A DNA stretch of 64,000 nt from an uncultured Gammaproteobacteria bacterium (GCA_964524895.1 CAZGFG010000001.1:54936-118935); one strand, 5' to 3'. Counted from the stretch's first letter, positions 7,735-62,165 are shown. Program-made: numbers and translations. Notes: generated from the letters alone by a model not told the origin.

Positions 7735-8055
7735 TCAACTCGATAAATTTCTTTTAACTTGCTTGTATTCTATTAATACTTGCGCGTATCCAATGATTAA
7801 AAATAAAATTCCTACTCTCATGATAATTTCTGCAATAATATCAAAACTAAATACGGTCATAAAATATGCCAAAATAAAAGAGATAAAGGTTAAGAAAAAG
7901 GATGCTTTGCTTTGTAACTTAAGTTTCCAAACATAGAAACCCCAGCCTAATAAAATCCAACTGTATATGTATATATTGAGCATAGGAAGAAGAAAAAGCA
8001 GGGTGAGTATCAAAAGCCAAATAATGAGGGGTACAAATCTAGTTATCCTTAACAT
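7735..8055 (-). CDS. Small integral membrane protein (106 aa, 3–4 TM), immediately downstream of and overlapping the 1165 aa GT-C gene. A possible GtrA-like accessory.
   Basis: Hydrophobic ORF overlapping the stop of 8039..11536 by 17 nt, which suggests translational coupling. There is no motif-level identification. Confidence 0.4.
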   Translation of the reverse strand: MLRITRFVPLIIWLLILTLLFLLPMLNIYIYSWILLGWGFYVWKLKLQSKASFFLTFISFILAYFMTVFSFDIIAEIIMRVGILFLIIGYAQVLIEYKQVKRNLSS

Positions 8056-19844: not shown

Positions 19845-20624
19845 ATGAAAACCATTATTCTTTGTGGTGGAATCGGATATAGACTTAAAGAAGAAACTGA
19901 ATTTAAACCTAAGCCAATGGTCCTAATAGGAAATAAGCCCATCCTTTGGCATATAATGAAAATCTATTCTCACTACGGTTACAACGAATTCATCATAGCT
20001 TTAGGTTATAAGGGTGAATATATAAAAGATTATTTTTTAAATCAAAAATATTTCTTGGATAATTTCACGCTTTACACTAAGAGTGGATATACAAAACTGC
20101 ATAAGAATAAGCGGGATAATACCAGAGATGATTTTAAGATTACTTTTGTAGATACAGGACAAGATACCTTACCTGGAGAAAGAATATTGAGAGTGAGGAA
20201 CTTTATACCCGAAAATGATGAGAACTTCATGGTTACTTATGGGGATGGAGTATCTGACATTAATATAAATGAATTGGTTAAATATCACAAAAAACACGGT
20301 AACATCGGAACTATAGCTGGAGTTCATCCTAGAAGCAAATATGGACTTTTAAAAATTGATAGGGCATGTATTGTACAAAAGTTTGTTGAAAAACCAGTAT
20401 TAACCGAGTGGACAAGCGGAGGATTTATGGTCTTTAAAAGAGAGTTTTTTTCTTATCTCCGCAAAGGTGAATTTGAACATTTAGCCTTAAAAAGATTGAT
20501 CAGGAAAAAACAACTTTCTGTATATGTTCATAACGGTTTTTGGCACTCAATGGATACATATCCCGATGTTGACAACTTAAATAGGCTCTGGTTGGAGAAT
20601 CCTAGGTGGAAAGTTTGGAAATAA
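19845..20624 (+). CDS. rfbF: Glucose-1-phosphate cytidylyltransferase (CDP-glucose pyrophosphorylase).
   Basis: MKTIILCGGIGYRLKEETEFKPKPMV.IGNKPILWHIMKIYSHYGYNEFIIALGYKG closely matches the RfbF/DdhA N-terminal consensus (GGxGTRL...KPKPMV.IGG.PILWHIMK.Y). 259 aa. Confidence 0.85.
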   Translation: MKTIILCGGIGYRLKEETEFKPKPMVLIGNKPILWHIMKIYSHYGYNEFIIALGYKGEYIKDYFLNQKYFLDNFTLYTKSGYTKLHKNKRDNTRDDFKITFVDTGQDTLPGERILRVRNFIPENDENFMVTYGDGVSDININELVKYHKKHGNIGTIAGVHPRSKYGLLKIDRACIVQKFVEKPVLTEWTSGGFMVFKREFFSYLRKGEFEHLALKRLIRKKQLSVYVHNGFWHSMDTYPDVDNLNRLWLENPRWKVWK

Positions 20625-21587
20625 ATGAACTTAAACGGGGTTAATGTACTTGTAACTGGTGGTTGTGGTTTCATCGGCGGTCACCTTGTAGAAGAGTTAA
20701 TTGAAAAAGGCGCCAAGGTAACGGTCGTTGATATTAACTTAAATCCACAGTCTACTTTTGCCCTAAACAAGTTAGAAAATAAATCTGAATTAAAGTTTCT
20801 TGATATCCGTGATAGGATTAATGTCTTGCGTCTTTTCAAGCAAGTTCAACCTTCTTATGTCTTCCATTTAGCAGCACAACCTTTAGTAGAGGAAGCTTAT
20901 CTTAGCCCTTTTGTAAATTTTGAAACCAATATTATGGGAACCGTTAATGTTTTGGATGGAGTAAGTTTTGCCAGGAGTGTTAAGGGAATAATTGTTGCTT
21001 CATCAGATAAAGCATACGGTAAGAGTAAAAAAGCATACCAAGAAGATTTTCCTTTAAAGGGAGATCATCCCTATGATGTATCCAAATCTTCACAAGATTT
21101 GATTGCTCAAAGCTATTTTAGAACCTACGATTTACCAGTAGTAATTACCAGGTTTGGAAATGTTTATGGACAAGGAGATTTTCATTTCAGCCGAATAATT
21201 CCCGGAATCTGTGAAGCAATTATTAAGAATAAGCCCCTTTTGGTAAGAAGTAATGGGAGATATATCAGAGATTACATTTATGTTAAAGATGTTGTTAACG
21301 GATATATATTCTTACTGAAGAATATTGATAGATTAAAGGGCAACGCTTTTAATTTTTCTTCTAAAGACGGCTTGTCAGTTATTAATCTTATCAAGCTAGT
21401 TGAAAAGATATTAAGAGTAAAAATACCTTATAAGATCCTAAATACTGCTCAAAACGAGATTCCTTATCAACATTTAGACGATAGAAAAATAAGAAGAATT
21501 CGTTGGAAACCAAATTATACAATCGAAAACACATTCCCTAAAGTACTTGCTTGGTATAACGAAAACGGTATTTTCCGATTAACCTAA
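20625..21587 (+). CDS. NAD-dependent sugar-nucleotide 4,6-dehydratase, probably CDP-glucose 4,6-dehydratase (RfbG/DdhB-like).
   Basis: VLVTGGCGFIGGHL Rossmann motif and catalytic SSDKAYGKS (S/T-D-K-x-Y). It is directly downstream of rfbF with a 0 nt gap. Confidence 0.6.
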   Translation: MNLNGVNVLVTGGCGFIGGHLVEELIEKGAKVTVVDINLNPQSTFALNKLENKSELKFLDIRDRINVLRLFKQVQPSYVFHLAAQPLVEEAYLSPFVNFETNIMGTVNVLDGVSFARSVKGIIVASSDKAYGKSKKAYQEDFPLKGDHPYDVSKSSQDLIAQSYFRTYDLPVVITRFGNVYGQGDFHFSRIIPGICEAIIKNKPLLVRSNGRYIRDYIYVKDVVNGYIFLLKNIDRLKGNAFNFSSKDGLSVINLIKLVEKILRVKIPYKILNTAQNEIPYQHLDDRKIRRIRWKPNYTIENTFPKVLAWYNENGIFRLT

Positions 21588-21589
21588 TA

Positions 21590-22819
21590 TTAATTTATAG
21601 AGAGTACGGGCATTTTATCTTTTACCTTCTTGTGGAGTTTCCTTTTTAGTCTTTTACTAATACTTTTATTTATTTCATTCCCTACCAATGCATCACTCAC
21701 TGATTCCGTAGAATTTACAGAAGGAATATCTTCTGTAGCAGCTAATCCTCTCTCATAGATATGCTTCTTTAAATTTTCATCGTAAGCATAAGGATTTTCT
21801 ATCATATCAATTAAAATTGGCTGATCTTTTTTGCAAGGTTTTATTAAAATTTCCCCCTCCATAAATTCTCGGCAGGATACATGTCCTTTTTGTAAAGGAA
21901 TCGCTAAATAGATATCATCAACGGTCAAATGGTGTCCTTTTTGTAGATTTCTTTTTGCATATACCCCACGCACTAAAGAATCCAAATATTGAGCTTCTCT
22001 AACTGTGATTACTCTCTTTGTATCTCCACCGCCCCCGCACATCTCTTTTGCCTTGTGAAAAGCCTTTAGCCAAGTATCTATCTGGCTAGGTAACGAGCAG
22101 TATTTAGATACAGGAACTCCGTCTTTATCAATATCAATGTGTCTCTCAAATGTTCTTGCCCCTTTTGCATAGGCAATTAACATAGAATACTCCCAGTTAT
22201 TATATTCATGGGTTGAAAAACCAATAGTATGACCTGGGTATCTATTTTTAAGAAAATCTATTTGATTAAGCTCCAGTTCACGGTCTTCAGAAGGATATAG
22301 AGATACACAATGATTAAGTGCTAAAGGGATATTCCTTTGCTCAAAAAATGTTACTAAATCATCAATATCTTTTAAAGAAGATCCTCCCGTTGAAGCAATG
22401 ATAGGTTTTCTGGCTTTTGCAATTGCTTCAATGAGAGGCCAATCGTTTACGTCCGAACTGGCAATCTTAATAATTGGTAGATTTAATTGGGCGCACAACT
22501 TTACCGATTCTTCGTCAAATGGTGTAGCCATTGGAATGCATGAACTTTTCCTGATTGCATCTACAAGAACCGCAAAGTCATTTTCTGACATTCTTGTGGC
22601 CAGTGTTTTTCCTATATATCTTATATCTGTTCTATGTCGGAAATCTTTGTGTATAAACCTATCCACATCTCTGAATTGGAGTTTTATGGCAGCTCGTACG
22701 TTATTAAATCGAACTATTTTGGCGTAATCACTGACTATCTGAAGACCTCTTTTTATATTCCCCCAGTGATTGTTTGCGAGTTCTAAAACAACCAGTTCTT
22801 CAAAAATATCTCTGTTCAT
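21590..22819 (-). CDS. NeuB-family synthase (sialic/pseudaminic/legionaminic acid synthase-like) with a lysine-rich C-terminal extension.
   Basis: Aligns block-wise with NeuB: [11 protein letters not shown] (ICEIGINHEG), AIKLQ (VVKHQ), MATPFD (ISTPFS), [40 protein letters not shown] and GFSTHE. 409 aa with a tail [14 protein letters not shown]. Confidence 0.7.
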
Positions 22820-22893
22820 ACTCCTAGAAATAAATCTTACATAATTCTAATCCCTACTCCTTAGCCTGTCAATATTATATACTATCGCAGCTT

Positions 22894-23979
22894 ATGAGTA
22901 TCAACAAAATTAATATTAATTCCAGTAGAAAAATCTACCGTGTCGAATTTAAAAATGACATCTATAGTACTCTTAATAGACTGACAAAAAAGTATGTTAC
23001 CCATTTTTTAATAGACAAAAACGTATATAATACACATCGGTCAATCCTGGATCATTCTACAACATCTGCCCATTCTACTTACATTTTTGAACCCTTGGAG
23101 AAGAAAAAAAACCTCAATGAAGTTTATAAATTTATTGATTTTCTACTTACAAACAAAATTCAAAAAGATCATAAGATAATTGTTGTAGGTGGCGCATTAG
23201 TCCAAGATATTGGCTCCTTTACATCGCACATTATACTTAGAGGCATAGATTGGATTTTTATTCCAACAACTCTATTAGCAATGGCTGATAGCTGTATAGG
23301 TTCAAAATCAGGAATTAATGTAAAGAGGCTTAAAAATCAAGTTGGATCTTTTCATCACCCCATTGATATATACATCTGCTTACCTTTTCTCAAAACTTTA
23401 CCTCAAAGTGAATTAGCTAATGGAATTGGGGAAATAATAAAGCATTTTTTTATCAAAGGAGAACCATTTTTTTCTGATATAGGAGATGAGCTGGATAAAA
23501 TGGGTAAAGATATACAAGTCACCCGAGAAATTATTTACAAAAGTCTACTGATAAAAAAAGATATTATAGAAAAAGACGAATATGAAGAAAAAGGAATTAG
23601 AAAGCTATTGAATTACGGACATACCTTTGGGCATGCCCTTGAAGGATATTCGAAAAATAGAATCTCTCACGGAGTAGCTGTCTTGAATGGAATGGATATG
23701 GCAAATTTTATCTCTTTCAAAAGAGGTCTCTTGCCGAGAAATGAATTTTTAAGATTTCATAAATTCGTAAAAAAATATATTCCTTACAAACAAATTCCGA
23801 TTAAAGATGTTAATCTGTATCTTGAATTTTTATCAAAAGATAAAAAAGCAGTTGGATCTAGTATATATGCGATATTGTGTAAAGGACTTGGAAATATCAT
23901 GATTGCTAAAATAGATCTGGATAAAAAGATTGTCAGAGATATAACAGAATACCGCGAATTCTACAGTCAAGGGAAATAA
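22894..23979 (+). CDS. 3-dehydroquinate synthase-like sugar-phosphate cyclase (DHQS superfamily).
   Basis: GGALVQDIGSF...IPTTLLAMADSCIGSKSGIN...GSFHHP, LKTLPQSELANGIGEIIKH, LLNYGHTFGHALE and HGVAVLNGM match the DHQS metal- and NAD-site blocks. 361 aa. Confidence 0.75.
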   Translation: MSINKININSSRKIYRVEFKNDIYSTLNRLTKKYVTHFLIDKNVYNTHRSILDHSTTSAHSTYIFEPLEKKKNLNEVYKFIDFLLTNKIQKDHKIIVVGGALVQDIGSFTSHIILRGIDWIFIPTTLLAMADSCIGSKSGINVKRLKNQVGSFHHPIDIYICLPFLKTLPQSELANGIGEIIKHFFIKGEPFFSDIGDELDKMGKDIQVTREIIYKSLLIKKDIIEKDEYEEKGIRKLLNYGHTFGHALEGYSKNRISHGVAVLNGMDMANFISFKRGLLPRNEFLRFHKFVKKYIPYKQIPIKDVNLYLEFLSKDKKAVGSSIYAILCKGLGNIMIAKIDLDKKIVRDITEYREFYSQGK

Positions 23980-23988
23980 GCAAAATAA

Positions 23989-25419
23989 ATGAGTTGTTTT
24001 ATCGGGATAGATTTAGGGGCAAGTTTTATCAAAGGCGCCCTCTTTGATATTGATAAATTAGAGATTTCCAATATTATTAAATTCTCTTCTCCTCAACCAA
24101 AGATTTACTCAAAAGAACCACCATTTTTAAGATTTGAAACTAACCCAAGTTCTTACGAAAAAATAGTTAAGCTTCTGATTAATAGATATTTGAAACAGGC
24201 TGATGATATTAGGGGGATTGTTTTCTCAACCCAAATGCACGGAATGGTGCTTATAGATTCAAAGTTAGCCCCAATAACTACATTCATTGGATGGCAAGAT
24301 GAAAGATTGCTGGAAAAATCTCCTATTAAGTCTAAAACCTGGGCCGACTTATTAAATTCTCGGATCAAAGGTATTGATTCTTCATCAACTGGAATAAAAT
24401 TAAAATCAGGACTTATGGGAAGTACGCTCTTTTGGCTAAAAGAAAACCAGGCATTAAAAAAATACAAGAATGTCAAAGCTTTGTTTTTAGGCGATTATAT
24501 AGCTGCGAGATTATCAAAAGGGGAAGCTTTTGTTGATGCCACTAATGCATGTGGCTCTGGCATCTTCGATGTTGAAAACGGCAAATGGCATATGGGTCTT
24601 CTTAAAAAAATAGGTATTGATACCTCGTATTTACCCACCATTGTCCCTACTGGTAGCATAATAGGGTACATGAAAATACTCAACAGAAAGATTCCAGTTT
24701 ATGCGTCAGTTGGTGATTTACAATCAGCTGTTTTAGGGAGCTTTGCGGGAATTACTAACAAAGAAGATATTTGCATTAATATTGGAACTGGGTCTCAGGT
24801 TTCATATGTATCTAAAAAATTTGATAATGGAAACTATGATATCAGATCCTATTTTGATAATACATACCTTTATACAATCACCAACATCCCAGCCGGCAGA
24901 GCACTTAATGTACTCGTAAAATTTATAGAAGAAATTGGGCATGAAATATTTGGTACCAAAAAACAGGTAGATCTTTGGGCGAAAATAGGTCAATTATTAG
25001 AAAATAAAAATAGACATAGCCAGTTAAAAGCTGATCTTGCATTTTTCAAGAATAACTTCACTGGACTAACAACTGGTAGTTTTACAAATATAACAGAAGA
25101 TAATTGGACTCTGGTAAATATGTTTGTATCAGCTTTTGAGTGTATGGCTGCAAACTATAAAATTGCCTATGATCGACTGCGAAAAAATAATCTTAAGGGC
25201 AGAATAATTTTTTCTGGCGGTCTTGCGAGGAAGTTCCCACTGTTAAGAATTATAACAAAAGAAAAGCTCAAAAAAGGATCGCGTCTGGCACCTTATGATG
25301 AAGAAGCACTTACGGGTCTTTTTATTATTTCTCTTTTTATCGCCAAAAAAACTAGGAACATCAAGGAAGCTACTTTACATTGTAAAAATCACAATATCAC
25401 ATATAAGAAGCCTGCATGA
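23989..25419 (+). CDS. FGGY-family carbohydrate kinase (ASKHA fold).
   Basis: N-terminal IGIDLGASFIKGALFD phosphate-1 motif and IGWQDER (W.D.R FGGY signature). 476 aa. Confidence 0.7.
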   Translation: MSCFIGIDLGASFIKGALFDIDKLEISNIIKFSSPQPKIYSKEPPFLRFETNPSSYEKIVKLLINRYLKQADDIRGIVFSTQMHGMVLIDSKLAPITTFIGWQDERLLEKSPIKSKTWADLLNSRIKGIDSSSTGIKLKSGLMGSTLFWLKENQALKKYKNVKALFLGDYIAARLSKGEAFVDATNACGSGIFDVENGKWHMGLLKKIGIDTSYLPTIVPTGSIIGYMKILNRKIPVYASVGDLQSAVLGSFAGITNKEDICINIGTGSQVSYVSKKFDNGNYDIRSYFDNTYLYTITNIPAGRALNVLVKFIEEIGHEIFGTKKQVDLWAKIGQLLENKNRHSQLKADLAFFKNNFTGLTTGSFTNITEDNWTLVNMFVSAFECMAANYKIAYDRLRKNNLKGRIIFSGGLARKFPLLRIITKEKLKKGSRLAPYDEEALTGLFIISLFIAKKTRNIKEATLHCKNHNITYKKPA

Positions 25420-26075
25420 ACCGAAGAAAAAACCTAAACAATATTAATACTGTACTTTTTGATGTCGATGGAACCCTCTTAAATACAACTGAATTTATCT
25501 TTCAGTCATATGAAAATACCTTCAGGAAGTTCAATCTGCCTCGCATAAGCAGAGGAGAAATAGCCAATCTGATGGGGAAACCCCTTGAAGAGTGCTACAA
25601 ATACCTGGCACCATCTTTCCCGCTAAAGATCCTTTGCAAAACACACCTGACTTTTCAACTGGAAAATCTACAGTTAATAGCACCTTATGTGAATACTAAA
25701 TCTACTCTGCAAAATCTCAAAAAAAACCATATTAGAATCGGAGCTGTTACTACAAGATCAAACCTAACTTCAATAAAATCATTACAAATTACTGGAATTC
25801 ATAGTTTTTTTGATGTTGTAATCTCCGGAGATGATGTTAAGTACCATAAACCTCATTCTGAACCACTTCTCAAGGCTTTAGGAATCCTCAAGGCGGAAAA
25901 GGGAAAAGCTGTAATGGTAGGAGATACGGAGAGTGATATTTTGGCAGGGAAAAACGCAGGAGTACTCACAATAGGGGTAACATATGGCTTCCATAAAGAG
26001 AAAATAGTTGACGCAAATCCAGATTTTACCCTAAATGATGTTTCAGAGATTTTACAGTTGCTTAGCAGAACCTAG
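25416..26075 (+). CDS. HAD-superfamily phosphatase.
   Basis: Motif I LFDVDGTLL, motif III K..., motif IV MVGDTESD. 219 aa. ATGA overlap with the kinase. Confidence 0.8.
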   Translation: MNRRKNLNNINTVLFDVDGTLLNTTEFIFQSYENTFRKFNLPRISRGEIANLMGKPLEECYKYLAPSFPLKILCKTHLTFQLENLQLIAPYVNTKSTLQNLKKNHIRIGAVTTRSNLTSIKSLQITGIHSFFDVVISGDDVKYHKPHSEPLLKALGILKAEKGKAVMVGDTESDILAGKNAGVLTIGVTYGFHKEKIVDANPDFTLNDVSEILQLLSRT

Positions 26076-26130
26076 GGATCTAAACAATTAGTTGACATCG
26101 TAATAAACTTGTCTATTATATGCTGGTAGT

Positions 26131-27960
26131 ATGGCGAATATGGTAAAAATTGGCGATTACTTAATGGATTTTCTATACCATCAAGGTTTAAGCGACCTTT
26201 TTGTTATCTCTGGAGGAGGTAACATTCATTTAATTGATTCCCTTGGAAGAAGTAAATTAAACTATATCTGTAATCACCACGAACAAGCTTGTGCTACAGC
26301 AGCTGAAGGATATTCTAGGGTTACGGGAAATTTTGGTGCTTGTCTCGTGACAACTGGCCCTGGCGGAACTAATGCCGTCACAGGAGTCTTGGGAGCTTGG
26401 CTTGACTCCATCCCTATGCTTGTTATTTCAGGACAAGTCAGGCGAAACCTCATCGAAACTGGAGCAAAATCTGGCGTCAGACAGATGGGAGTCCAGGAAA
26501 TAAATATCATAGATATCGTAAAAAATATAACAAAATACGCCGTTACTGTTATGGATCCACTAACAATTAGATATCACCTAGAAAAAGCTTTATATCTAGC
26601 AAAGCTGGGAAGACCAGGCCCTGTATGGTTAGATATTCCCTTGGATGTCCAGGGATCTTTGATTAAGGTAGGGAAACTTAGATCATTTAAGCCGTCAGAA
26701 ATCGTTCCACCTTTCGAAACAGAGGAAACGAAACTCAGAAAGCTAGTTTCTCAAGCTATCAACAAAATAGAACAATCAAGGCGTCCGGTACTCTATGTAG
26801 GTAACGGAATAAGACTTGCTCATGCAGAACAAGAATTATCAGAACTGGCAGATATTTTAAAAATCCCAATCTTCACCAGCTATGTAGGTTACGACCTTAT
26901 ACCGTCTTCTCATCCTTATTTTTTTGGCAGATCTCATTACTTAGGTCAAAGAGCGGCAAATTTTATTGTACAAAATAGTGATCTTTTTCTCTCGATTGGT
27001 GCACGACTTGATCTTCTTACGACTGGGTACACATATAAGGCTTTTGCCAGGCAGGCTTATAAAATAATGGTTGATATAGATAAAAACGAGATAGAAAAAC
27101 CAATTTTGGGTATTGATCTTCCTATAAACTACGATGCAAAAACATTTATTGAAGAGATGAAAAAACAGCTGAAGCAGGGTTTTAAAAGACCGGATATTTA
27201 TGAATGGTTAAGCTACGGGAAAAAGCTTATTAAGAAATACCCAAATATCTCTCCGAAATTTTGGCAAGAGAAAAAATATGTAAATCCATATTGTTTTATT
27301 GAAACGATAGGAAAGATGCTCCGACCAAATGAGATAATAGTTGTATCCGACGGAATGGGACCATTAAATTGCATGTATCAGGCATTTTATGTAAAAAAAG
27401 GGCAACGAATTATTTTAAATCTGGGCAGTGCACAAATGGGGTATGGATTACCTGCTGCAGTTGGGGCGTCTTTTGCCACGAGGAAGAAAAAAAGGATAAT
27501 CTGTTTTGAAGGTGATGGGAGCATCCAACTTAATATTCAAGAACTCCAAACAATAAAGCATCACAATTTACCAATTAAAATCTTTGTTTATAGTAACGAC
27601 GGCTATCAGTCAATTAGAAATACCCAGGATGGTCTTTTTGAAGGCAGATACTTTGCTTCCAATGCTGCAAGCGGAGTGAGTTGCCCCGATTTTCTAAAAG
27701 TAGGAAAAGCATATGGTATTAAAACCGTTAGAATTAACAATCATCAAGAAATGGAAGAAAAGATAAAATATGTACTTTCCTATGAAGGTCCCATGTTGTG
27801 TGACATAAATACTGTACGCAACCTACATTTAACCCCAAGGGTTCAAACGAAAAAAAGACCAGACGGAAGTTTATATTCCCCACCATTAGAAGAAATGTGG
27901 CCGCCTCTTTCTGATGAAGAACAAAAGGAAAATATGCTCATTCCTGATTGGGAGGAATAA
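26131..27960 (+). CDS. Thiamine-diphosphate enzyme of the acetolactate-synthase-like family, possibly a YerE-like sugar C-branching enzyme.
   Basis: N-terminal Pyr domain VTTGPGGTNAVTGVLGAWLDSIPMLVISGQV, a middle FAD-like domain, and C-terminal ThDP motif GDGS...SNDGY. 609 aa. Confidence 0.8.
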   Translation: MANMVKIGDYLMDFLYHQGLSDLFVISGGGNIHLIDSLGRSKLNYICNHHEQACATAAEGYSRVTGNFGACLVTTGPGGTNAVTGVLGAWLDSIPMLVISGQVRRNLIETGAKSGVRQMGVQEINIIDIVKNITKYAVTVMDPLTIRYHLEKALYLAKLGRPGPVWLDIPLDVQGSLIKVGKLRSFKPSEIVPPFETEETKLRKLVSQAINKIEQSRRPVLYVGNGIRLAHAEQELSELADILKIPIFTSYVGYDLIPSSHPYFFGRSHYLGQRAANFIVQNSDLFLSIGARLDLLTTGYTYKAFARQAYKIMVDIDKNEIEKPILGIDLPINYDAKTFIEEMKKQLKQGFKRPDIYEWLSYGKKLIKKYPNISPKFWQEKKYVNPYCFIETIGKMLRPNEIIVVSDGMGPLNCMYQAFYVKKGQRIILNLGSAQMGYGLPAAVGASFATRKKKRIICFEGDGSIQLNIQELQTIKHHNLPIKIFVYSNDGYQSIRNTQDGLFEGRYFASNAASGVSCPDFLKVGKAYGIKTVRINNHQEMEEKIKYVLSYEGPMLCDINTVRNLHLTPRVQTKKRPDGSLYSPPLEEMWPPLSDEEQKENMLIPDWEE

Positions 27961-28826
27961 TGAAGATACTTTTAACAGGATCCACCGGATATATAGGCAG
28001 AAACCTTACCGAAAATTTAAGCAATAAATACACCATCTTTTCACTTTCTCATAAACAGCTTGATTTGTTAAATTCTGAAGAAGTTGATAAATTTTTTAGA
28101 AAACAATGGTTCGATGTCGTAATTCATTGTGCAGTTACTGGAGGCAGTAGAATCGAAGAAGGTTTTGAAAATTCACTTTACCAAAATCTAAAAATTTTCT
28201 TTAATATCCTTAGAAATATCAACCATTTTGGGAGGATGATCAATTGTGGTTCGGGAGCAGAATACGATAAGAGTCGTTCTTTAAAAAAAGTTAAAGAAAA
28301 ACATTTTGACAAGAGGATACCGGAGGACGAGTATGGTTTTTTTAAGTATATATGCTCAAAATATATTGAGCGATCAAATAATATTACCAACCTGCGTGTC
28401 TTTGGTCTTTTTGGAAAATATGAGGATTACAGATACCGATTTATTTCTAATGCTATTTGTAGAAATATTTTTAATCTTCCGATTATCCTAAATAAAAATG
28501 TATATTTTGACTATCTATACATTGACGATTTTATTAATATAGTAGATTATTTTATTAACCATAAAGGCAAGTACACATCTTATAACGTGGGTCGTGGTAA
28601 ATCAATTAGTATTTTAAGTATTGCAAGGCAAATAAACCAAATAGCAAAAAGGAAATCTAAAATTATTATAAGAAATAAAGGACTAAATCATGAATATACG
28701 TGCAATAATTTAAGACTAATAAAAGAGTTGAGAAGATTTGAATTTACTAATTTTGACATAGCACTTCACAAGCTTTACACTTGGTACCAAGAAAATAAGG
28801 AGTTAATAAATATAAAATATCTATGA
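27948..28826 (+). CDS. NAD-dependent epimerase/reductase (short extended SDR, 292 aa), RfbS/RfbJ-size.
   Basis: ILLTGSTGYIGRNL Rossmann motif and a size typical of CDP-paratose/abequose synthases. It overlaps the upstream gene. Confidence 0.65.
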   Translation: MGGIMKILLTGSTGYIGRNLTENLSNKYTIFSLSHKQLDLLNSEEVDKFFRKQWFDVVIHCAVTGGSRIEEGFENSLYQNLKIFFNILRNINHFGRMINCGSGAEYDKSRSLKKVKEKHFDKRIPEDEYGFFKYICSKYIERSNNITNLRVFGLFGKYEDYRYRFISNAICRNIFNLPIILNKNVYFDYLYIDDFINIVDYFINHKGKYTSYNVGRGKSISILSIARQINQIAKRKSKIIIRNKGLNHEYTCNNLRLIKELRRFEFTNFDIALHKLYTWYQENKELINIKYL

Positions 28827-29485
28827 AAAAAACAGTTCTCCTTACCGGAGCTTCTCGAGGAATAGGCCAAGCTATAGCAGACCAATTAAAAAATAGATTT
28901 AAGCTTCTCTCTCCTGCCAGGGAAGAGCTTGATTTAAGTAATGATGCTTCAATAGAAAACTTTATAGAAAAAAATAAGGATTTAAAAGTAGATGTTATTA
29001 TAAATAATGCAGGGGTAAACTTTCCTCAATGGGTAGAAGAAATAACGGACAAAAATATCCGCGAAACATTCCAAGTAAATTTAATTGCACCTATAAAGCT
29101 CATCCAAGGTTTTGTTCATAATATGAAGCGAAATAAATGGGGAAGAATTGTCAATATTAGCTCTGCTTTTGGGGTAGTTGCAAGAGGTAAACAAGTGTTA
29201 TATGTTTCGACAAAACATGGAATTAACGGTGCGACAAAAGCTTTAGCTTTGGAGCTTGCTCCTTATAATATCCTTGTAAATTCTGTATGCCCTGGATTTA
29301 CCAGAACGGATTTAGTATTAAGAAACCCTTCAGAAAAAATTAAAGTTATTGAGCAAGATATTCCACTTGGCAGACTCGCTTATCCAAGCGAAATAGCCAA
29401 TCTTGTAGAATTTTTGATTTCCGATAAAAATACTTATATTACCGGTTCCTACATTGTTATAGATGGAGGGTTTACTTGTAAGTAA
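28823..29485 (+). CDS. Classical short-chain dehydrogenase/reductase (SDR).
   Basis: TGASRGIG cofactor motif, NNAG, and catalytic S...YVSTK (YxxxK). Confidence 0.8.
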   Translation: MKKTVLLTGASRGIGQAIADQLKNRFKLLSPAREELDLSNDASIENFIEKNKDLKVDVIINNAGVNFPQWVEEITDKNIRETFQVNLIAPIKLIQGFVHNMKRNKWGRIVNISSAFGVVARGKQVLYVSTKHGINGATKALALELAPYNILVNSVCPGFTRTDLVLRNPSEKIKVIEQDIPLGRLAYPSEIANLVEFLISDKNTYITGSYIVIDGGFTCK

Positions 29486-30452
29486 ACCTGCCGAATTAGG
29501 AATGATCATGAAAAGAAAAAAAGTATCAATCGGTGTTATTTGTTTTAACGAAGAGGATAATGTTATTCCTGCTCATAACGAGCTTGCGAGAGTTACCAAT
29601 AAAAATCAAAGATATACCTATGAATTTATTTTTGTTGATAATGGTAGTACAGATAATACTAGAAAACAGATTAAAAAAATCTCTGAAAAAGATCATAGAG
29701 TTGTCGGTGTTTTTTTATCACGTAACTTCGGTCCTGAATCTTCGGGACAAGCAGCCATAGATTTTGCCTCCGGAGATGCATTTGTTATGTACGAAGGAGA
29801 TTTGCAGGACCCTCCAGACGTTATCTTGGATTTCATCAAGCAGTGGGAGAAAGGCTTTGAAGCGGTAGTTGGTATTCGAGAAAAAATAGATGATATTCTT
29901 CCAATGACAATAACCAGAAAGCTATACTATAAGGTATTTAAGACAATTTCTAATATCGATATCCCTGTAAATGCCGGAAGTTTTTGTTTATTAGACAAAA
30001 AGGTAGTAGAGGCAATGAAAGAACTACCCGAGAAATACAGATTCTTCAGGGGTTTAAGAGCTTGGGTAGGATTTAAAACTTCCTATATCACTTACGAACG
30101 TAGAAGAAGACAAAAGGGAAAAAGCTCTTATAATTTTTTTAGATATTTACATCTTGCTGAACGAAGTTTCTTTGGCTTCTCTTATTTACCATTAGATATT
30201 ATTGTCTATTTTAGTCTTCTTTTAGTGTCTCTCTCAATCATCTGGTTAGCATTATTATTGTCCTCATTCCTTCTATTCGGGCAAACTATAAAGGAATCTA
30301 CGTTGATTTTGTTTTCAGTTATCCTCTTTGGTGGAATTCAACTGCTTGCTTCAAGCATAATCGGAAAATATATACAAGTTATAACGGAGGAAACAAAAGC
30401 ACGTCCTGTATACATAGTAGAAAGGGTCTTAAGGAATGAAAAAAATAGATGA
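29463..30452 (+). CDS. ArnC/GtrB-like GT2 polyprenyl-phosphate sugar transferase with two C-terminal TM helices. The true start is probably the internal ATG at 29502 or 29508 (MIMKRKK).
   Basis: VSIGVICFNEED...FVDNGSTDNT, YEGDLQDPPDVI (ArnC: DADLQNPPEEI), and the C-terminus GKYIQVITEETKARPVYIVERV (ArnC: [22 protein letters not shown]). Confidence 0.75.
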   Translation: MEGLLVSKPAELGMIMKRKKVSIGVICFNEEDNVIPAHNELARVTNKNQRYTYEFIFVDNGSTDNTRKQIKKISEKDHRVVGVFLSRNFGPESSGQAAIDFASGDAFVMYEGDLQDPPDVILDFIKQWEKGFEAVVGIREKIDDILPMTITRKLYYKVFKTISNIDIPVNAGSFCLLDKKVVEAMKELPEKYRFFRGLRAWVGFKTSYITYERRRRQKGKSSYNFFRYLHLAERSFFGFSYLPLDIIVYFSLLLVSLSIIWLALLLSSFLLFGQTIKESTLILFSVILFGGIQLLASSIIGKYIQVITEETKARPVYIVERVLRNEKNR

Positions 30453-31656
30453 TCTCCGGGTAACATACGCTCAAGCTGTTCACGATGAAGTAGAGGAAAA
30501 AAGAGTTTTAAGGGTTTTACGTGAACATAGAACAATCATGGGGAAAGAGGTTTCTGAATTTGAAAGAAGAGTAGCAAAGAAATTCGGCAAAAAATATGGG
30601 GTTATGGTAAATTCCGGTTCTTCTGCCCTTACTATTGCCATCGAGTTAATGAACTTACCAGCAGGTAGTGAAGTAATTACACCTCTTCTTACTTTCTCTA
30701 CTACAGTGGCTTCCCTTCTCAGAGACGGACTAGTCCCTGTTTTCACCGATGTTGATCTTAGAAAATACACAATCGATATTTCTCAAGTTGAAAACCTTAT
30801 TACTAAAGAAACCAAGGCTTTGATGATTCCACTTCTTTTAGGAAATGTTCCTGATATAGTAAAACTTTCTCTGATTGCAAAAAAATATAATTTATTCCTT
30901 ATAGAAGATTCTTGCGATACCCTGGGAGCAACTATAAATAGAAAACCAACCGGTCGATTTTCTGATATTAGTGTAACAAGTTTTTACGGATCACATATTA
31001 TTACTGCAGGAGGCGGAGGAGGAATGTTGATGACAGATAGAGCTGCCTTCTATGATAAAGCAAGGGTGCTTCGGGGTTGGGGAAGAAGCTCGTCCCGCCT
31101 GAATGAATCCGAAGATTTTAATAAGCGTTTTAGCCAAAAACTTGATGGTATCCTCTATGATGCCAAATTTATATTTGACACAATTGGCTATAATTTTATG
31201 CCTTTGGAAATAGGGGCAGCATTTGGAAATGCCCAACTTGATAAATTAAATATATTTAAGAAAATTAGAACACGCAATTTTGAACATCTATATAATTTTT
31301 TCAAAAATTACGAAAATTTTTTCATACTTCCTCTGCAAGAAACAAACATTAAAACTCAATGGCTAGCTTTTCCCTTGGTTATTAAAACCCAGGCTCCTTT
31401 TTCCAGATTTCACCTGGTTAAATATTTAGAGGAGAGAAATATTCAGACTCGTCCTATTTTTACAGGTAATATTCTAAAACACCCTGGTTTTCATTCTATA
31501 CCTCACAAGAGATCAAAAGAAGGCTACCATGTTACGGACGAAATCATGAAGCAAGGATTTGTCATAGGTTGCCATCACGGCCTAACTCTAAAGCACTTAC
31601 AAAAAATTAAAGATGTCTTCAATAACTTCTTAAACAAGTATAATAGCTGGCGGTAA
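30436..31656 (+). CDS. DegT/DnrJ/EryC1-family PLP/PMP enzyme with the catalytic lysine replaced by histidine; predicted sugar-nucleotide 3-dehydrase (E1/ColD type) rather than an aminotransferase.
   Basis: Family blocks are present (VMVNSGSSAL, IEDSCDTLGA). At the Schiff-base position the sequence is TSFYGSHIITAGGGGG, i.e. H where aminotransferases have K (SFH..K....GEGG). This matches the SFY..HHIT.GEGG pattern I recall for E1/ColD. Confidence 0.7.
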   Translation: MKKIDDLRVTYAQAVHDEVEEKRVLRVLREHRTIMGKEVSEFERRVAKKFGKKYGVMVNSGSSALTIAIELMNLPAGSEVITPLLTFSTTVASLLRDGLVPVFTDVDLRKYTIDISQVENLITKETKALMIPLLLGNVPDIVKLSLIAKKYNLFLIEDSCDTLGATINRKPTGRFSDISVTSFYGSHIITAGGGGGMLMTDRAAFYDKARVLRGWGRSSSRLNESEDFNKRFSQKLDGILYDAKFIFDTIGYNFMPLEIGAAFGNAQLDKLNIFKKIRTRNFEHLYNFFKNYENFFILPLQETNIKTQWLAFPLVIKTQAPFSRFHLVKYLEERNIQTRPIFTGNILKHPGFHSIPHKRSKEGYHVTDEIMKQGFVIGCHHGLTLKHLQKIKDVFNNFLNKYNSWR

Positions 31657-31670
31657 ACTATCTCTATGGA

Positions 31671-33590
31671 TTAGTTACTAAATACTAATCTTTTTTTGAC
31701 TTCATCTGTGATATTTATTACTTTAGGTCCTTCAACTGCAAATGCATATAAATTCTCTAAACTAATAAATTTTCCATCTAAAGAATAGCCTTCACCATTA
31801 CGGATGCACCTCATTTCTTTATTCCCCTCATTCCTATATAGAAACTCCTTTGATCCATTCTGGACAGTAGCCATCTTTTGTAGTTCTAAAAAATCCCATG
31901 TTAAGGCAATACATGCATTAGTAGTATTGTTTGTTATATAACTCATTTCTATAGGCAACCAATATGTTAAGTTTCTCCAATCAAAAATATCCTCCCACTG
32001 ATTGGGAGCTTCTACTTCTTCTGTTTTAAACTTTATATAAATCAATAAATTACCATTCATTTTATCTTTTGAAATATAACTTAATGTTTGAGCCTTCATG
32101 GATTCTTGAATTTGTAACTCCCTACCGGAACTCTTTTTTCCATAAAAAAGCTGAGCGATTTCCGCTTGACTGATACTAAAAATCTGAAATATAACCACTA
32201 GTATTAGAAGTAATGCTAACAGTCTATTTATTCGCTTATTTCTTTGGTAAAGTAAAGTCAATATACTTGCTATAAAAAGATAGGAACCTATGGTTGAAAT
32301 AACAAAATACCTGTGTATACCTTCTTGATACATATAGTAATCCCTTGTAAAAAACCACTGCCCCAGGATAAACAGTAACGCGAAAAAGGGAGACAGAAGT
32401 GCAAAAAGTAGGAGAGTATTTTTCTTACCAGTTAAATACCATTCAATTCCGCAACTTATTGAAATAGAGATAATAAAGGCTGCTAAAATCCCAGAGTATA
32501 ATCCAGCATTAAAGGATGGCCCTGCATACCCAATGACAAGATGTTCAGGTATTCCAAAATGATGAGTATATAAAACAAAAATAATAACATCAAATATTAA
32601 ATTTATTAACATTGATATAGAAAAAAATCTGAATGGTTTATTAGATATAATAAAAGATAAAATAAGAGAAACTGCCCCAAAGATAATAAATGGTTTATAA
32701 ATTAAAGAGGAGATATAAGCAGACAGATTGGATATATTGATTGGTACAAGGATATTAAGAGATGCAGCCGGTAAAAATGTATAGCCTAGTCCCCATAATG
32801 GATTTAAAAGGAAGTACCAATTTCCGTTGGTAATTTTTTTAATAAAATCAGGCCAGCCTGCAGGACTATATGCATCTCCTCCAACATTTCCTAAACTATT
32901 CAAAGTAATAGTAATAATTGGCAAAAAGATCGCACTTAATCTTAAAACTGAAACAATAAAATTACACTTCTTATCTTTGATCAGAATAAATAACTCAACA
33001 AATAAAATAATTATAAATATAGGAAAGATGCGAATAGGAGATGCTAAATACCCAAACGTAACAATTAAAGATAGAAGCGATACGGTAATGATGGTTGGTT
33101 TTTTTACACAATAGTAATATACAATTAGAAACAGGAGCATTAATGCTACTCCCAAATATTCATTACCTACTACATAAAGGTATAGCGCTCCAGTAGATGG
33201 ATAGCTGAGGCCATATAGAAAAGTTCCCAAAAAGGAAAATAGCCTATTCTTAGTTAGAAGCAGAATGAGAGGATAGAGCAGCAAAGTGGCAACTATTTTA
33301 AAGAAAATGTTTGTATAAAGATACATTGTATAGTTTTTCCCATACAAACTATCTAAAAAACCTAAATAGAAGTCGTGTGTTGCGTTATGAATACCTACCT
33401 TTTTCCATGTACCTATGGGATCTGAGAACATTTGGTCTTTGCTAAATCTGATCTGATAAAAACCACCATAATCCTCATTGGTTAATCCTTGACCTACAAT
33501 TGGTTTCAATAAAATAAATTGGAAAAAAATAATTATTAGAACTAAAGCAGGAAATATAATAGGTCCTGAAAATATCTTAGTTAGCTGCAT
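31671..33590 (-). CDS. GT-C-like polytopic membrane glycosyltransferase paralogue (639 aa).
   Basis: Multi-TM protein with the family-conserved C-terminal tail (LYAFAVEGPKVINITDEVKKRL). It is first of three tandem paralogues. Confidence 0.6.
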   Translation of the reverse strand: MQLTKIFSGPIIFPALVLIIIFFQFILLKPIVGQGLTNEDYGGFYQIRFSKDQMFSDPIGTWKKVGIHNATHDFYLGFLDSLYGKNYTMYLYTNIFFKIVATLLLYPLILLLTKNRLFSFLGTFLYGLSYPSTGALYLYVVGNEYLGVALMLLFLIVYYYCVKKPTIITVSLLSLIVTFGYLASPIRIFPIFIIILFVELFILIKDKKCNFIVSVLRLSAIFLPIITITLNSLGNVGGDAYSPAGWPDFIKKITNGNWYFLLNPLWGLGYTFLPAASLNILVPINISNLSAYISSLIYKPFIIFGAVSLILSFIISNKPFRFFSISMLINLIFDVIIFVLYTHHFGIPEHLVIGYAGPSFNAGLYSGILAAFIISISISCGIEWYLTGKKNTLLLFALLSPFFALLFILGQWFFTRDYYMYQEGIHRYFVISTIGSYLFIASILTLLYQRNKRINRLLALLLILVVIFQIFSISQAEIAQLFYGKKSSGRELQIQESMKAQTLSYISKDKMNGNLLIYIKFKTEEVEAPNQWEDIFDWRNLTYWLPIEMSYITNNTTNACIALTWDFLELQKMATVQNGSKEFLYRNEGNKEMRCIRNGEGYSLDGKFISLENLYAFAVEGPKVINITDEVKKRLVFSN

Positions 33591-33616
33591 AGTTTTGTAA
33601 TAGTATATCCTATTTT

Positions 33617-35494: not shown

Positions 35495-35560
35495 TTCTCT
35501 TAATACTGGTTTTTAAGGAAAGGTAAAAACCAAGATTTGTAAGGTTTTATCATATAAGTA

Positions 35561-47503: not shown

Positions 47504-47732
47504 TTATTGGCTTATTTTTATAATTTGGGTATTATTCTTGATATTCAAAAAAAGAGAGTTTGCCTATTATTTAAATATTTCTTTTTATCTATTTTGTATT
47601 GGCGCCGTTTTAAAAGTGTTAACAATTGACACTCCTTCAGAAATATTCATGAGATTGAGCTTACTCTCGATACTGACAAGTTTAGGATTTATCATTTGGA
47701 AAAATATCAAATTGAGCTTTCTTAGAAACTAA
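47496..47732 (+). CDS. Small integral membrane protein (78 aa, 2 TM); uncertain.
   Basis: Hydrophobic ORF overlapping the upstream giant GT-C stop by 8 nt, in the same relative position as 7735..8055. However, its 3' end overlaps the convergent carbamoyltransferase gene by 51 nt. Confidence 0.3.
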   Translation: MINYWLIFIIWVLFLIFKKREFAYYLNISFYLFCIGAVLKVLTIDTPSEIFMRLSLLSILTSLGFIIWKNIKLSFLRN

Positions 47733-62164: not shown

Positions 62165-62165
62165 C

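Follow-up and report, generated by a model that had tools for sequence, protein, structure and literature searches.

Among the closest known counterparts of the region analysed here is the yersiniose A pathway of Yersinia pseudotuberculosis, catalysed by DdhA-D, YerE and YerF, together with the pathways of its long-branched relatives erwiniose, caryophyllose and gastriose (PMC9306805). Long-branched sugars are formed from CDP-4-keto-3,6-dideoxyglucose and an α-keto acid made by an aldolase, which are joined by a YerE-like enzyme (Steitz et al. 2022, PMC9306805). Concerning the removal of the 3-hydroxyl group, E1 and SpnQ need a four-cysteine [2Fe-2S] motif and a reductase; ColD has no [2Fe-2S] cluster and uses glutamate (PMC8987622).

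The cluster found in the 64 kb window (the whole stretch of DNA analysed) would share with these pathways a CDP-4-keto-3,6-dideoxyhexose acceptor, the ThDP-dependent ligation of a decarboxylated α-keto acid at C4 with an NAD(P)H reductase coupled to it, and an enzyme, encoded in the cluster itself, that forms C-C bonds in the donor. However, the yersiniose-type pathway uses an Fe-S 3-dehydratase with its E3 partner (DdhD), whereas the cluster has neither the Fe-S cluster nor E3; a PEP-dependent NeuB-like enzyme appears in place of the pyruvate aldolase of the known long-branched pathways; the ThDP enzyme is of the JanthE branch; AroB-like, short SDR, FGGY kinase and HAD phosphatase genes are added; the product would be passed to a polyprenyl-phosphate GT2; and the host, an uncultivated bacterium, is probably a member of the Microgenomates (candidate phyla radiation). 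Judging from sequence and comparative genomics, we consider it rather probable that the region directs the making of a 3,6-dideoxyhexose of the yersiniose/erwiniose/caryophyllose class, activated with CDP and carrying an acyl branch at C4, which would then be transferred to a lipid carrier.

All the ORFs named in the original prediction were found at their coordinates, and the genes listed there are real, although it passed over the NeuB-like, AroB-like, FGGY kinase and HAD genes, as well as a GT2 gene lying inside the same interval. The NeuB-like, AroB-like and FGGY genes can be regarded as conserved cluster members belonging to the same pathway, HAD being sporadic. All the genes described below lie on the plus strand, with the exception of the NeuB-like gene and those encoding three membrane proteins. 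A nine-gene operon begins with the AroB-like gene and ends with that of the E1-like 3-dehydratase, with overlaps of 1-23 bp from the ThDP gene through the E1-like gene. Every equivalog-level NCBIfam score falls under its curated cutoff, and therefore specificities may differ from the enzyme names used here.

Entry into the pathway would be provided by two genes which abut with a gap of 0 bp. The first (19845..20624) encodes a glucose-1-phosphate cytidylyltransferase-like protein of 259 aa (RfbF/DdhA-like), whose best NCBIfam match is TIGR02623 (264 bits, cutoff 300; next family, 80 bits), and whose gene accompanies that of the E1-like protein in roughly half of 80 genome loci. The second (20625..21587) encodes a CDP-hexose 4,6-dehydratase-like extended SDR from a short lineage (320 aa, compared with about 357 aa in the canonical enzyme), with TIGR02622 as its best NCBIfam match (189 bits, cutoff 278; PseB, 49 bits). 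Its SSDK...YDVSK sequence fits the pattern [ST]DK-Yx3K of the CDP-type Asp-Lys couple, a pattern also present in inverting UDP-GlcNAc dehydratases and not diagnostic alone; SSDK is aligned with TSDK of Y. pseudotuberculosis 1RKX, the corresponding residues being STNK in CDP-tyvelose 2-epimerases. The prediction of a CDP-glucose synthase beside a CDP-type 4,6-dehydratase is thus borne out by the Asp-Lys couple, the adjoining cytidylyltransferase and the family scores, and sequence, motifs and gene linkage suggest that both enzymes would generate CDP-4-keto-6-deoxyglucose.

The DegT-family protein (30436..31656, 406 aa) is a His-type, Fe-S-free sugar 3-dehydratase resembling E1. It scores 318 bits against RfbH NF011936 (cutoff 423), and among structures its best match is E1 (234 bits), followed by ColD (177 bits); it shares 36% of its residues with E1 and 34% with ColD, compared with 62-69% identity inside its own family. 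The Lys-to-His change claimed for it is a true replacement, since the alignment places His187, and not a Lys shifted nearby, at the Schiff-base position, in register with E1 His220 and ColD His188; the surrounding sequence, SFYGSHIITAGG, contains no Lys. This histidine is invariant, replacing the Schiff-base Lys in 121/121 family members examined. With E1 (RfbH/DdhC/AscC, CDP-6-deoxy-L-threo-D-glycero-4-hexulose 3-dehydrase, 3BCX) the protein has in common the fold, the His and a CDP-sugar gene context, but the cysteines of the [2Fe-2S] loop present in E1 are all missing: the E1 loop WGRDCYCAPGCDNTCKKRF becomes WGRSSSRLNESEDFNKRF in the cluster enzyme, and the count of loop cysteines is 0 both here and in the best 120 homologues.

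An E3 partner is likewise absent from the window, as had been noted. No E3/AscD-like ORF exists in the window, where neither C-x4-C-x2-C nor RxYS occurs in ORFs of at least 60 aa and no ferredoxin or FNR domain was detected among the 46 ORFs reaching 150 aa; the E3 motif was also not found in 1.45 Mb of DNA from 86 related loci, nor across L084-L166. In sister clusters with the same architecture (L084 from Roizmanbacteria, L089 and 12 further clusters), the DegT protein is a canonical E1 with the motif WGRDCWCxxGxDNTC; therefore, the Cys-free enzyme fills the E1 slot. Having no [2Fe-2S] ligands, the protein could not receive electrons from an E3 partner, which would require a ColD-type way of working, and the E3-independent option of the original prediction is favoured by His187 and the missing cysteines. 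ColD (GDP-4-keto-6-deoxymannose 3-dehydratase, 2GMS/3B8X) is also His-type, Fe-S-free and reductase-independent, and its mechanism is the one proposed here, although the ColD substrate derives from GDP-mannose while this cluster encodes a cytidylyltransferase, and ColD lacks the E1-type loop, which the cluster enzyme keeps without its cysteines. In this second step, the His187 enzyme would strip the 3-hydroxyl group, the resulting 3,4-ene intermediate would be hydrolysed, and glutamate or another amino donor would restore PMP.

The next enzyme acting on the CDP-sugar would be a ThDP-dependent carboligase of 609 aa and three domains (26131..27960). Its best PDB match is 8RPH (JanthE; 420 bits, E 1.4e-124), well above AHAS (248 bits), and its BLAST identity is 37% to JanthE (residues 3-595) and 32-33% to IlvB/ALS3; the TIGR00118 score is 399, under the cutoff of 538. 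A neighbour-joining tree groups it with JanthE and 41 ThDP enzymes from sugar clusters, separate from IlvB/ALS3. The expected kinship with YerE, and not with IlvB/ALS, holds in so far as tree and PDB scores place the protein with JanthE, a YerE-like, ketone-accepting enzyme from Janthinobacterium sp. HH01; 5AHK, which we take to be PpYerE, scores 239 bits, no better than AHAS. JanthE is itself a comparison enzyme without known physiological substrates, the likeness rests on 37% identity, and its CDG motif differs from the canonical GDG ThDP motif of the cluster enzyme. Distant lineages carry the ThDP gene in linkage with the cytidylyltransferase, 4,6-dehydratase and E1-like genes, and a compact cluster (L054) contains these four genes together with an SDR and a GT2. 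The reaction proposed for the enzyme is decarboxylation of a donor and its addition at C4 of the CDP-4-keto-3,6-dideoxyhexose.

The start of the following gene, an extended SDR of 288-292 aa (27948/27960..28826), overlaps the ThDP stop codon, so that both are translationally coupled; in public assemblies its start is the ATG at 27960. The gene also follows the ThDP gene in L084, L007, L006 and L018. Its description as an RfbS/RfbJ-sized reductase of about 290 aa is correct as to size, but there is no likeness beyond it: Pfam Epimerase gives 88 bits, and the best matches, to GDP-fucose synthase and RmlD, are weak. In a YerF-like manner, it would reduce the branch carbonyl. Of the two products originally envisaged, a 3,6-dideoxyhexose or a C-branched derivative, the branched one is better supported, because of this coupling and the recurrence of the ThDP gene with CDP-4-keto-3,6-dideoxy genes in many lineages.

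The donor would be built by the products of several of the remaining genes. The NeuB-family PEP-dependent ulosonate synthase-like protein (21590..22819, minus strand, 409 aa) gives 134.6 bits with Pfam NeuB and equivalog scores far under the NeuB and PseI cutoffs; its closest PDB entry is 3G8R (221 bits; NeuB, 100), and it is 56-72% identical across 17 AroB-like loci. Exactly one among NeuB-like (14), HpcH/HpaI (9) and HMGL-like aldolase (6) genes is present in 29 of 31 loci containing both ThDP and AroB-like genes, the two remaining loci being shorter than 6 kb. The three types can be read as alternatives for one step, and this mutual exclusion in ThDP loci is the reason for proposing that the NeuB-like enzyme probably makes the α-keto-acid donor, by analogy with the aldolase of known long-branched pathways. 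The FGGY-family sugar kinase (23989..25419, 476 aa; FGGY_N 104 bits), weakly similar to xylulokinase or gluconate kinase, occurs in 16 of the 31 loci (with NeuB in 9/14, HMGL in 6/6 and HpcH in 0/9). The HAD-IA phosphatase (25416..26075, 219 aa; HAD_2 153 bits, PpaX-like 184 bits, cutoff 218) is rare (5/31) and therefore accessory, and the classical, FabG-like SDR (28823..29485, 220 aa; adh_short_C2 150 bits) is found in 65 of 83 AroB-like loci and in 30 of the 31 that also contain ThDP.

The AroB-like protein (22894..23979, 361 aa) scores 351.6 bits against TIGR04425 (cutoff 400) and 273.9 against aroB (cutoff 305). Compared with AroB (DHQS) and other sugar-phosphate cyclases, it has DHQS structures as its best matches (167 bits; DOIS, EEVS and DDGS, 78-86) and keeps the DHQS active site, the metal, phosphate and carboxylate ligands being invariant among 22 homologues; we take Arg264 and Lys250 of AnDHQS to be the carboxylate-binding residues, after Carpenter et al. 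1998. AroB serves the shikimate pathway as a maker of aromatic precursors, whereas the cluster enzyme is located in glycan clusters with the short SDR alongside, in a window where no shikimate genes were found, and ulosonate tailoring is proposed as its role. AroB-like and short SDR genes also lie beside CMP-type cytidylyltransferases, which activate ulosonic acids, sharing the locus with ThDP in 0/47 cases; this association fits a 2-keto sugar acid as product.

Donor synthesis is the least certain of the proposed steps. The NeuB-like enzyme would join PEP and a small aldose into a 3-deoxy-2-ulosonate, a terminal phosphate being placed on the aldose or the ulosonate by the FGGY kinase; the AroB-like protein would perform DHQS chemistry (oxidation by NAD+, β-elimination of phosphate and re-reduction), and the 220 aa SDR would then reduce the ketone formed. 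Taken together, these reactions would yield an ω-deoxy 3-deoxy-2-ulosonic acid, e.g., 3,7-dideoxy-heptulosonate, a donor of the type expected for a caryophyllose-like branch: the branch of caryophyllose is a 2,6-dideoxy-tetrahydroxyhexyl chain, the pattern that such a donor would be expected to give. Against this step, C6 sugars are the normal substrates of NeuB enzymes and no free tetrose source is evident, and a true cyclisation giving a dehydroquinate-like carbocycle would be equally compatible with the conserved DHQS site. Moreover, none of the proposed steps makes use of the HAD phosphatase. The AroB-like gene is missing in 11 of 13 genome loci with ThDP and Cys-free E1-like genes, and therefore the branch-building module is optional for this pairing.

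If the AroB-like protein were a true cyclase, the product would be a carbocycle-bearing sugar resembling bradyrhizose or caryose, the latter being a natural carbocyclic C4-branched 3-deoxy sugar, and either a dehydroquinate-like ketone would act as the ThDP acceptor or a phosphorylated acyl branch would be cyclised after ligation. The invariant catalytic residues, the closest NCBIfam, named as a cyclising phospholyase, and the acceptance of cyclic ketones by YerE-like enzymes speak for this reading. Nevertheless, we judge it unlikely: a dehydroquinate-like carbocycle is not an α-keto acid and is unusable as a ThDP donor, as an acceptor it would leave the tight linkage to CDP-4-keto-3,6-dideoxy genes unexplained, and where ThDP is absent the AroB-like and SDR pair is found in linkage with CMP-type cytidylyltransferase and 2-hydroxyacid dehydrogenase genes, pointing to an open-chain 2-keto acid.

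It also seems improbable that the region makes two unrelated products, with the cytidylyltransferase, 4,6-dehydratase, E1-like protein and SDR of about 290 aa forming a CDP-3,6-dideoxyhexose of the conventional abequose, paratose or ascarylose type, and the NeuB-like, AroB-like, FGGY, HAD, ThDP and short SDR proteins a separate ulosonic acid or cyclitol. Such a division would agree with the RfbS/RfbJ-like size of the extended SDR and its resemblance to NDP-4-keto-sugar reductases, with the presence of AroB-like and short SDR genes in contexts free of ThDP and CDP genes, and with four ThDP and AroB loci (L109, L114, L132 and L164) in whose examined DNA CDP genes were not seen. However, ThDP accompanies the cytidylyltransferase, 4,6-dehydratase and E1-type genes in 11 genome loci without AroB and in at least 12 AroB loci, the window holds no second nucleotidyltransferase beside these genes, and the ThDP stop overlaps the SDR start within one overlapping operon which ends in the 3-dehydratase. 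A housekeeping set (acetolactate synthase, shikimate dehydroquinate synthase and an amino-sugar DegT aminotransferase) is very improbable, for, although the leading NCBIfam matches bear the names acetolactate synthase large subunit and AroB-related, and JGI annotates homologues as 3-dehydroquinate synthase, ilvN, ilvC, ilvD and aro genes are all absent from the window, scores stay under the equivalog cutoffs, the tree splits the ThDP enzyme from IlvB, the Schiff-base Lys is replaced by His in every one of the 121 family members compared, and the cluster is kept as a unit inside glycan loci.

For the branched CDP-sugar, the last step would be its loading onto polyprenyl phosphate by the GT2 polyprenyl-phosphate glycosyltransferase (29463..30452, 329 aa), a PgfS/ArnC-like protein (219 bits to PgfS, 116 to ArnC) with 2 predicted C-terminal TM segments, present in 14/31 ThDP and AroB loci and in 0/16 CMP-transferase loci. 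We know of no precedent for an ArnC-type GT2 using a CDP-sugar. Flanking the operon, three paralogous polytopic membrane proteins (31671..37438, minus strand; 639, 625 and 625 aa; 29-34% mutual identity), with 9-12 predicted TM segments and no match in Pfam/NCBIfam searches, are candidate GT-C-type transferases using the polyprenyl-phosphate sugar, and would transfer the sugar residue outside the membrane; L084, a sister cluster, is bordered by PMT_2 proteins. In sum, the product of the cluster is most likely a rare carbon-branched 3,6-dideoxy sugar destined for the cell surface, whose branch seems to be made by an undescribed set of enzymes.

Eleven genes lie within positions 19845-31656. A glucose-1-phosphate cytidylyltransferase-like gene (19845-20624) and an extended SDR gene for a dehydratase (20625-21587) are placed head-to-tail on the forward strand. 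They are followed on the reverse strand by a NeuB-like gene (21590-22819), which a divergent spacer of 74 bp separates from a tight forward-strand operon of about nine genes (22894-31656). The order in this operon is an AroB-like, i.e., dehydroquinate synthase (DHQS)-like, gene (22894-23979), an FGGY kinase, a HAD phosphatase, a ThDP enzyme (26131-27960), an extended SDR (27948-28826), a classical short SDR of 220 aa (28823-29485), a GT2 glycosyltransferase (29463-30452), and a DegT-family gene (30436-31656), with overlaps of 1-23 bp among the last five. Both the DegT protein and the AroB-like protein have their nearest homologues in Levy-, Davies-, Roizman-, and Gottesmanbacteria; together with a G+C content of about 33%, this makes a Microgenomates member of the candidate phyla radiation (CPR) the probable source. 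The original prediction had read this interval as the synthesis of a CDP-activated 3,6-dideoxyhexose or a C-branched derivative of it. The genes that it named were correctly recognised, while its gene list was incomplete: the NeuB-like, AroB-like, FGGY, and HAD genes were passed over, and sequence comparison places them as probable members of the pathway, the HAD phosphatase only sporadically.

The proposed CDP-glucose synthase (rfbF) scores 264 bits against the glucose-1-phosphate cytidylyltransferase family, by far its best match, and at most 80 bits against other families. Likewise, the motif claimed for the 4,6-dehydratase is present, as SSDK...YDVSK conforms to [ST]DK...Yx3K with the Asp-Lys acid/base couple, and its SSDK is aligned onto the TSDK of the Yersinia enzyme 1RKX. 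CDP-tyvelose 2-epimerases score slightly higher, but carry STNK at the SSDK position. TIGR02622 is still the top family of this protein, with 189.3 bits (under its cutoff of 278), and the dTDP-glucose dehydratase family gives 168.8 bits.

Among solved structures, the DegT-family protein is closest to the 3-dehydratase E1 (234 bits), followed by ColD (177 bits). Its His187 is aligned exactly with His220 of E1 and His188 of ColD, and histidine is invariant at the Schiff-base position in the query, in E1, in ColD, and in all of the 120 best homologues. The suggested Lys-to-His change is thus borne out; a Schiff-base lysine merely displaced by one or two residues is ruled out, since there is no lysine within the motif. 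The [2Fe-2S] motif required by the Y. pseudotuberculosis E1 consists of C193, C251, C253, and C261 (PMC8987622). The corresponding loop (Cys251, 253, 257, and 261 of E1) contains no cysteine in the query or in any of the best 120 of at least 8000 homologues found at E <= 1e-30, the set in which the Cys-free character of the family was established. The single retained cysteine, equivalent to C193, is shared with ColD and so has no diagnostic value. The protein reaches 318.3 bits against NCBIfam NF011936 (RfbH), under the cutoff of 423. Members of its own family share 62-69% identity with it, canonical E1 about 36%, and ColD about 34%. It represents a separate, Cys-free lineage on the E1 side. 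Its homologues come from Patescibacteria, DPANN archaea, Bacteroidota (Chitinophagaceae), rhizobia (Ensifer/Sinorhizobium), and Legionellales-related or Coxiellaceae-like MAGs, and in about half of 80 genome loci the gene adjoins homologues of the cytidylyltransferase and the dehydratase. To our knowledge, the only characterised sugar 3-dehydratases are E1, ColD, and SpnQ.

As had been noticed, no E3 partner (AscD/DdhD) is encoded in the window. No ORF with C-x4-C-x2-C or RxYS was found there or in 1.45 Mb of related loci, no plant-type ferredoxin or FNR signature appeared in any window ORF, and a Pfam scan of all 46 window ORFs of at least 150 aa revealed no ferredoxin/FNR domain. E1 and SpnQ require a four-Cys cluster and a reductase, while ColD works by hydrolysis of the 3,4-ene intermediate, glutamate serving to restore PMP (PMC8987622). 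The ColD route would be the sole course open to a Cys-free enzyme, so that of the two options originally offered, a ColD-like dehydratase or a reductase encoded elsewhere, the first is favoured: reductase independence is predicted because the Fe-S ligands are missing. The enzyme resembles ColD in being His-type, devoid of an Fe-S cluster, and putatively reductase-independent. However, ColD acts on GDP-4-keto-6-deoxymannose, whereas the neighbours here are a glucose-1-phosphate cytidylyltransferase-like gene and a dehydratase of Asp-Lys type, and the cluster contains no GMD or ManC. With E1 it shares the fold and the histidine, but not the loop cysteines, the E3, or an NF011936-level score.

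A canonical E1 (WGRDCWCxxGxDNTC, with the C-x-C-x7-C loop) occupies the same slot in about 12-14 sister clusters of matching architecture (L084, L089, L090, L100, L101, L126, L129, L138, L140, L144, L151, and L165 among our comparison loci), and the two dehydratase types are therefore interchangeable. This substitution provides independent support for the 3-dehydratase role of the Cys-free enzyme. No E3-like gene lies beside the E1-bearing loci, up to 10 kb on either side, and their organisms may rely on a general ferredoxin system, as SpnQ does.

The ThDP enzyme, a three-domain member of the decarboxylase superfamily, matches 8RPH best among solved structures (420 bits, E 1.4e-124), ahead of plant, bacterial, and yeast AHAS (228-248 bits). 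8RPH is the structure of the YerE-like JanthE, an enzyme by which α-keto acids are joined to non-activated ketones and which is said to be the subject of Lanza et al. 2024. By BLAST, the window enzyme shares 37% identity with JanthE and 32-33% with B. subtilis IlvB and Rhizobium ALS3. In a neighbour-joining tree of the window enzyme, JanthE, 41 ThDP enzymes of sugar loci, and two ALS controls, JanthE and all the sugar-linked enzymes form one clade, separated by a long branch from ALS. The two ALS outgroups came from a tblastn search of plasmids, which returned only ordinary ALS (31-33% identity). The score against TIGR00118 (biosynthetic ALS) is 398.8 bits, under the cutoff of 538, and no gene for an ilvN-like regulatory subunit exists in the window, the B. 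subtilis control locus having ilvB-ilvN. The assignment to the YerE kind, as opposed to ALS/IlvB, thus stands. The structure 5AHK, which we take to be Pseudomonas protegens YerE (PpYerE), gives only 239 bits, and 'YerE-like' therefore spans more than one lineage, of which the window enzyme belongs to that of JanthE. Its gene shares one operon with the E1-like gene and is coupled to an SDR, and genes for CDP-4-keto-3,6-dideoxyhexose accompany it in this way in more than 25 loci. Krug et al. 2024 reportedly surveyed in silico more than 200 clusters of the YerE-like type.

In the AroB-like protein, all the Zn, phosphate, and carboxylate ligands of DHQS are invariant across the alignment; mapped by motif, we take these to be R130, D146, K152, N162, E194, K197, K250, R264, N268, H271, H275, H287, and K356 in the numbering of the A. 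nidulans enzyme (AnDHQS). The protein scores 273.9 bits against TIGR01357 (aroB), under the cutoff of 305, and is much nearer to DHQS than to DOIS, EEVS, or DDGS; no aro genes accompany it in the window. Since it keeps all these ligands and is closest to DHQS, its substrate is probably a DAHP-like 3-deoxy-2-ulosonate phosphate.

The order cytidylyltransferase, dehydratase, NeuB-like gene (opposite strand), AroB-like gene, FGGY kinase (not in every case), ThDP enzyme, SDR, SDR, and DegT is kept in four other Microgenomates (L084, which is Roizmanbacteria CP065004.1, L085, L087, and L089), and partial versions exist in Levyibacteriota (L007) and in a Coxiellaceae MAG (L049). Scanning metagenomes with the AroB-like alignment as seed added 80 loci to L084-L086, for a total of 83. 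The short SDR is present in 65 of these 83, the ThDP enzyme in 31, the FGGY kinase in 26, the NeuB-like gene in 17, and a CMP-type cytidylyltransferase (CTP_transf_3) in 16. No locus contains both the ThDP enzyme and the CMP-type transferase, and the AroB-like and SDR pair therefore has two contexts. In the first, the pair occurs with the ThDP enzyme, CDP-sugar genes, and a polyprenyl-phosphate GT2; in the second (L086 and 15 others of L087-L166), with the CMP-transferase, SIS, GFO/IDH/MocA, 2-hydroxyacid dehydrogenase, HpcH aldolase, and MptE-like genes. This ThDP-free context suggests an undescribed CMP-activated ulosonic acid.

Exactly one of three genes, NeuB-like (14), HpcH/HpaI aldolase (9), or HMGL-like aldolase (6), is found in 29 of the 31 ThDP loci, the other two being fragments shorter than 6 kb. 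The FGGY kinase, whose matches in the PDB are weak and uninformative, occurs alongside the NeuB-like or the HMGL-like gene and never with HpcH. The NeuB-like protein has a Pfam NeuB domain (134.6 bits), yet its equivalog scores are 124 and 117 against cutoffs of 400 and 340. Its nearest solved structure is 3G8R (221 bits), a structural-genomics 'probable spore coat polysaccharide biosynthesis protein E', with genuine NeuB at 100 bits, and these values would mark a distinct NeuB subfamily. The searchable literature offered no description of the association of AroB and NeuB, which Krug et al. 2024 may already contain, and nothing usable on TIGR04425, on DHQS-like genes in branched-sugar clusters, or on the biosynthesis of caryose or bradyrhizose.

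Erwiniose, caryophyllose, and gastriose share one scheme, in which a hydroxylated α-keto acid is supplied by a pyruvate aldolase encoded in the cluster (BphI type in Pectobacterium, aldolase/citrate-lyase family in M. marinum). This acid is decarboxylated and joined to CDP-4-keto-3,6-dideoxyglucose by a YerE-like enzyme, after which a reductase completes the branch (Steitz et al., PMC9306805). The mutual exclusivity of the three genes suggests that the NeuB-like enzyme would take the aldolase role here, PEP replacing pyruvate, and the FGGY kinase would install a phosphate that is later eliminated. DHQS chemistry comprises oxidation of the substrate, elimination of phosphate, and re-reduction. 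Halting before cyclisation, the AroB-like enzyme would release a 3,7-dideoxy-2,6-diulosonate, and reduction of its 6-keto group by the short SDR would lead to 3,7-dideoxy-heptulosonate. Taking into account that the branch of caryophyllose is a 1,3,4,5-tetrahydroxyhexyl chain deoxygenated at positions 2 and 6, this compound would be the donor needed; it would also suit CMP activation in the ThDP-free context.

This donor-building sequence (NeuB-like, FGGY, AroB-like, short SDR) is the weakest link of the proposal, and the main alternative is that the AroB-like enzyme truly cyclises its substrate to a carbocycle. An aminoshikimate/AHBA-like pathway, suggested by the combination of AroB-like, DegT, HAD, and kinase genes, and an acarbose/validamycin-like C7-cyclitol pathway were both rejected. 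The AroB-like protein retains the carboxylate and phosphate ligands of DHQS and lies far from EEVS, DOIS, and DDGS, and the DegT protein is a dehydratase of His type instead of an aminotransferase or AHBA synthase.

The most far-reaching reading of these patterns is tentative as a whole, and we hold it to be possible rather than probable. It posits a widespread and undescribed phosphorylate-then-eliminate route, in which a NeuB-like, HpcH, or HMGL enzyme, a DHQS-like phospholyase, and a short SDR would generate ω-deoxy 3-deoxy-2-ulosonic acids. These would then be CMP-activated as a new ulosonic acid, or grafted decarboxylatively by the ThDP enzyme onto CDP-4-keto-3,6-dideoxyhexose, the latter fate leading, in this CPR bacterium, to surface sugars of 12 carbons that resemble caryophyllose (or bear a carbocycle). 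The route would employ a third lineage of His-type 3-dehydratase that would unite the E1 scaffold with the Fe-S-free chemistry of ColD.

Lipid-linked delivery of the sugar is suggested by the GT2, which is PgfS/ArnC-like with two C-terminal helices, and by three to five flanking polytopic paralogues. The GT2 would load the sugar on polyprenyl phosphate, and the polytopic proteins would add it outside the membrane. Five polytopic proteins of the window (15567-17498, 31671-33590, 33617-35494, 35561-37438, and 40236-41876) are paralogous or similar, with 546-643 aa, 9-12 predicted TM segments, and no Pfam or NCBIfam match; another, of 740 aa (45281-47503), has only a faint match to GT-C_AftD. Each is probably a GT-C-like transferase of an unknown family.

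Outside this interval, the window is occupied by a glycan island of the cell envelope, containing GT2 and GT4 transferases, methyltransferases, and several polytopic proteins lacking family matches. The genes for an AlgX-like SGNH protein (37445-38836) and an MBOAT acyltransferase (38840-40249) form a pair, an arrangement for O-acetylating exported polysaccharides. A UDP-glucose dehydrogenase (50206-51606) and a glutamine-dependent NAD synthase (51649-53304) are encoded between two carbamoyltransferases (47682-49487 and 53312-55051). The large ORFs 3157-5940, 6151-7656, and 8039-11536 (927, 501, and 1165 aa) matched nothing in Pfam at E <= 0.01. At the window end, a UDP-GlcNAc 2-epimerase, a polysaccharide deacetylase-like protein, and a formyltransferase-domain protein are encoded in a row (61064-63733) and may be part of a further sugar-modification module. 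A second ThDP system (56461-59130), adjoined by a GT4 (55193-56365), consists of an extended SDR (56461-57417) and a transketolase split into N-terminal (57410-58219) and C-terminal (58216-59130) halves. Since split transketolases are one of the three known classes of sugar-branching enzymes (review PMC12247030), a second C-branched sugar may be encoded in the same island.

The pathway logic is the same as that of yersiniose and the long-branched sugars, and in this sense its kind is already known. It differs from those systems in a 3-dehydratase lineage that stands on the E1 side but is Cys-free and putatively independent of an E3, in its proposed PEP-dependent NeuB-like donor synthase, in the conserved tailoring module formed by the DHQS-like enzyme, the short SDR, and the kinase, and in its presence in CPR bacteria with putative lipid-linked delivery. 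If this large lineage, linked to CDP-sugar genes, is indeed Fe-S-free, C3 deoxygenation of CDP-sugars would be possible without the E1/E3 electron-transfer pair. C-branched long-chain sugars are chemically hard to detect, and the mutually exclusive NeuB-like, HpcH, and HMGL genes, together with the constant AroB-like and SDR pair, provide a genomic predictor of them; these patterns also hint at the physiological donors of biocatalytically useful enzymes, such as JanthE. The genomes of CPR bacteria are tiny, and the organisms rely on contact with host cells; a heavy outlay on an elaborate surface sugar bears on their attachment to hosts.
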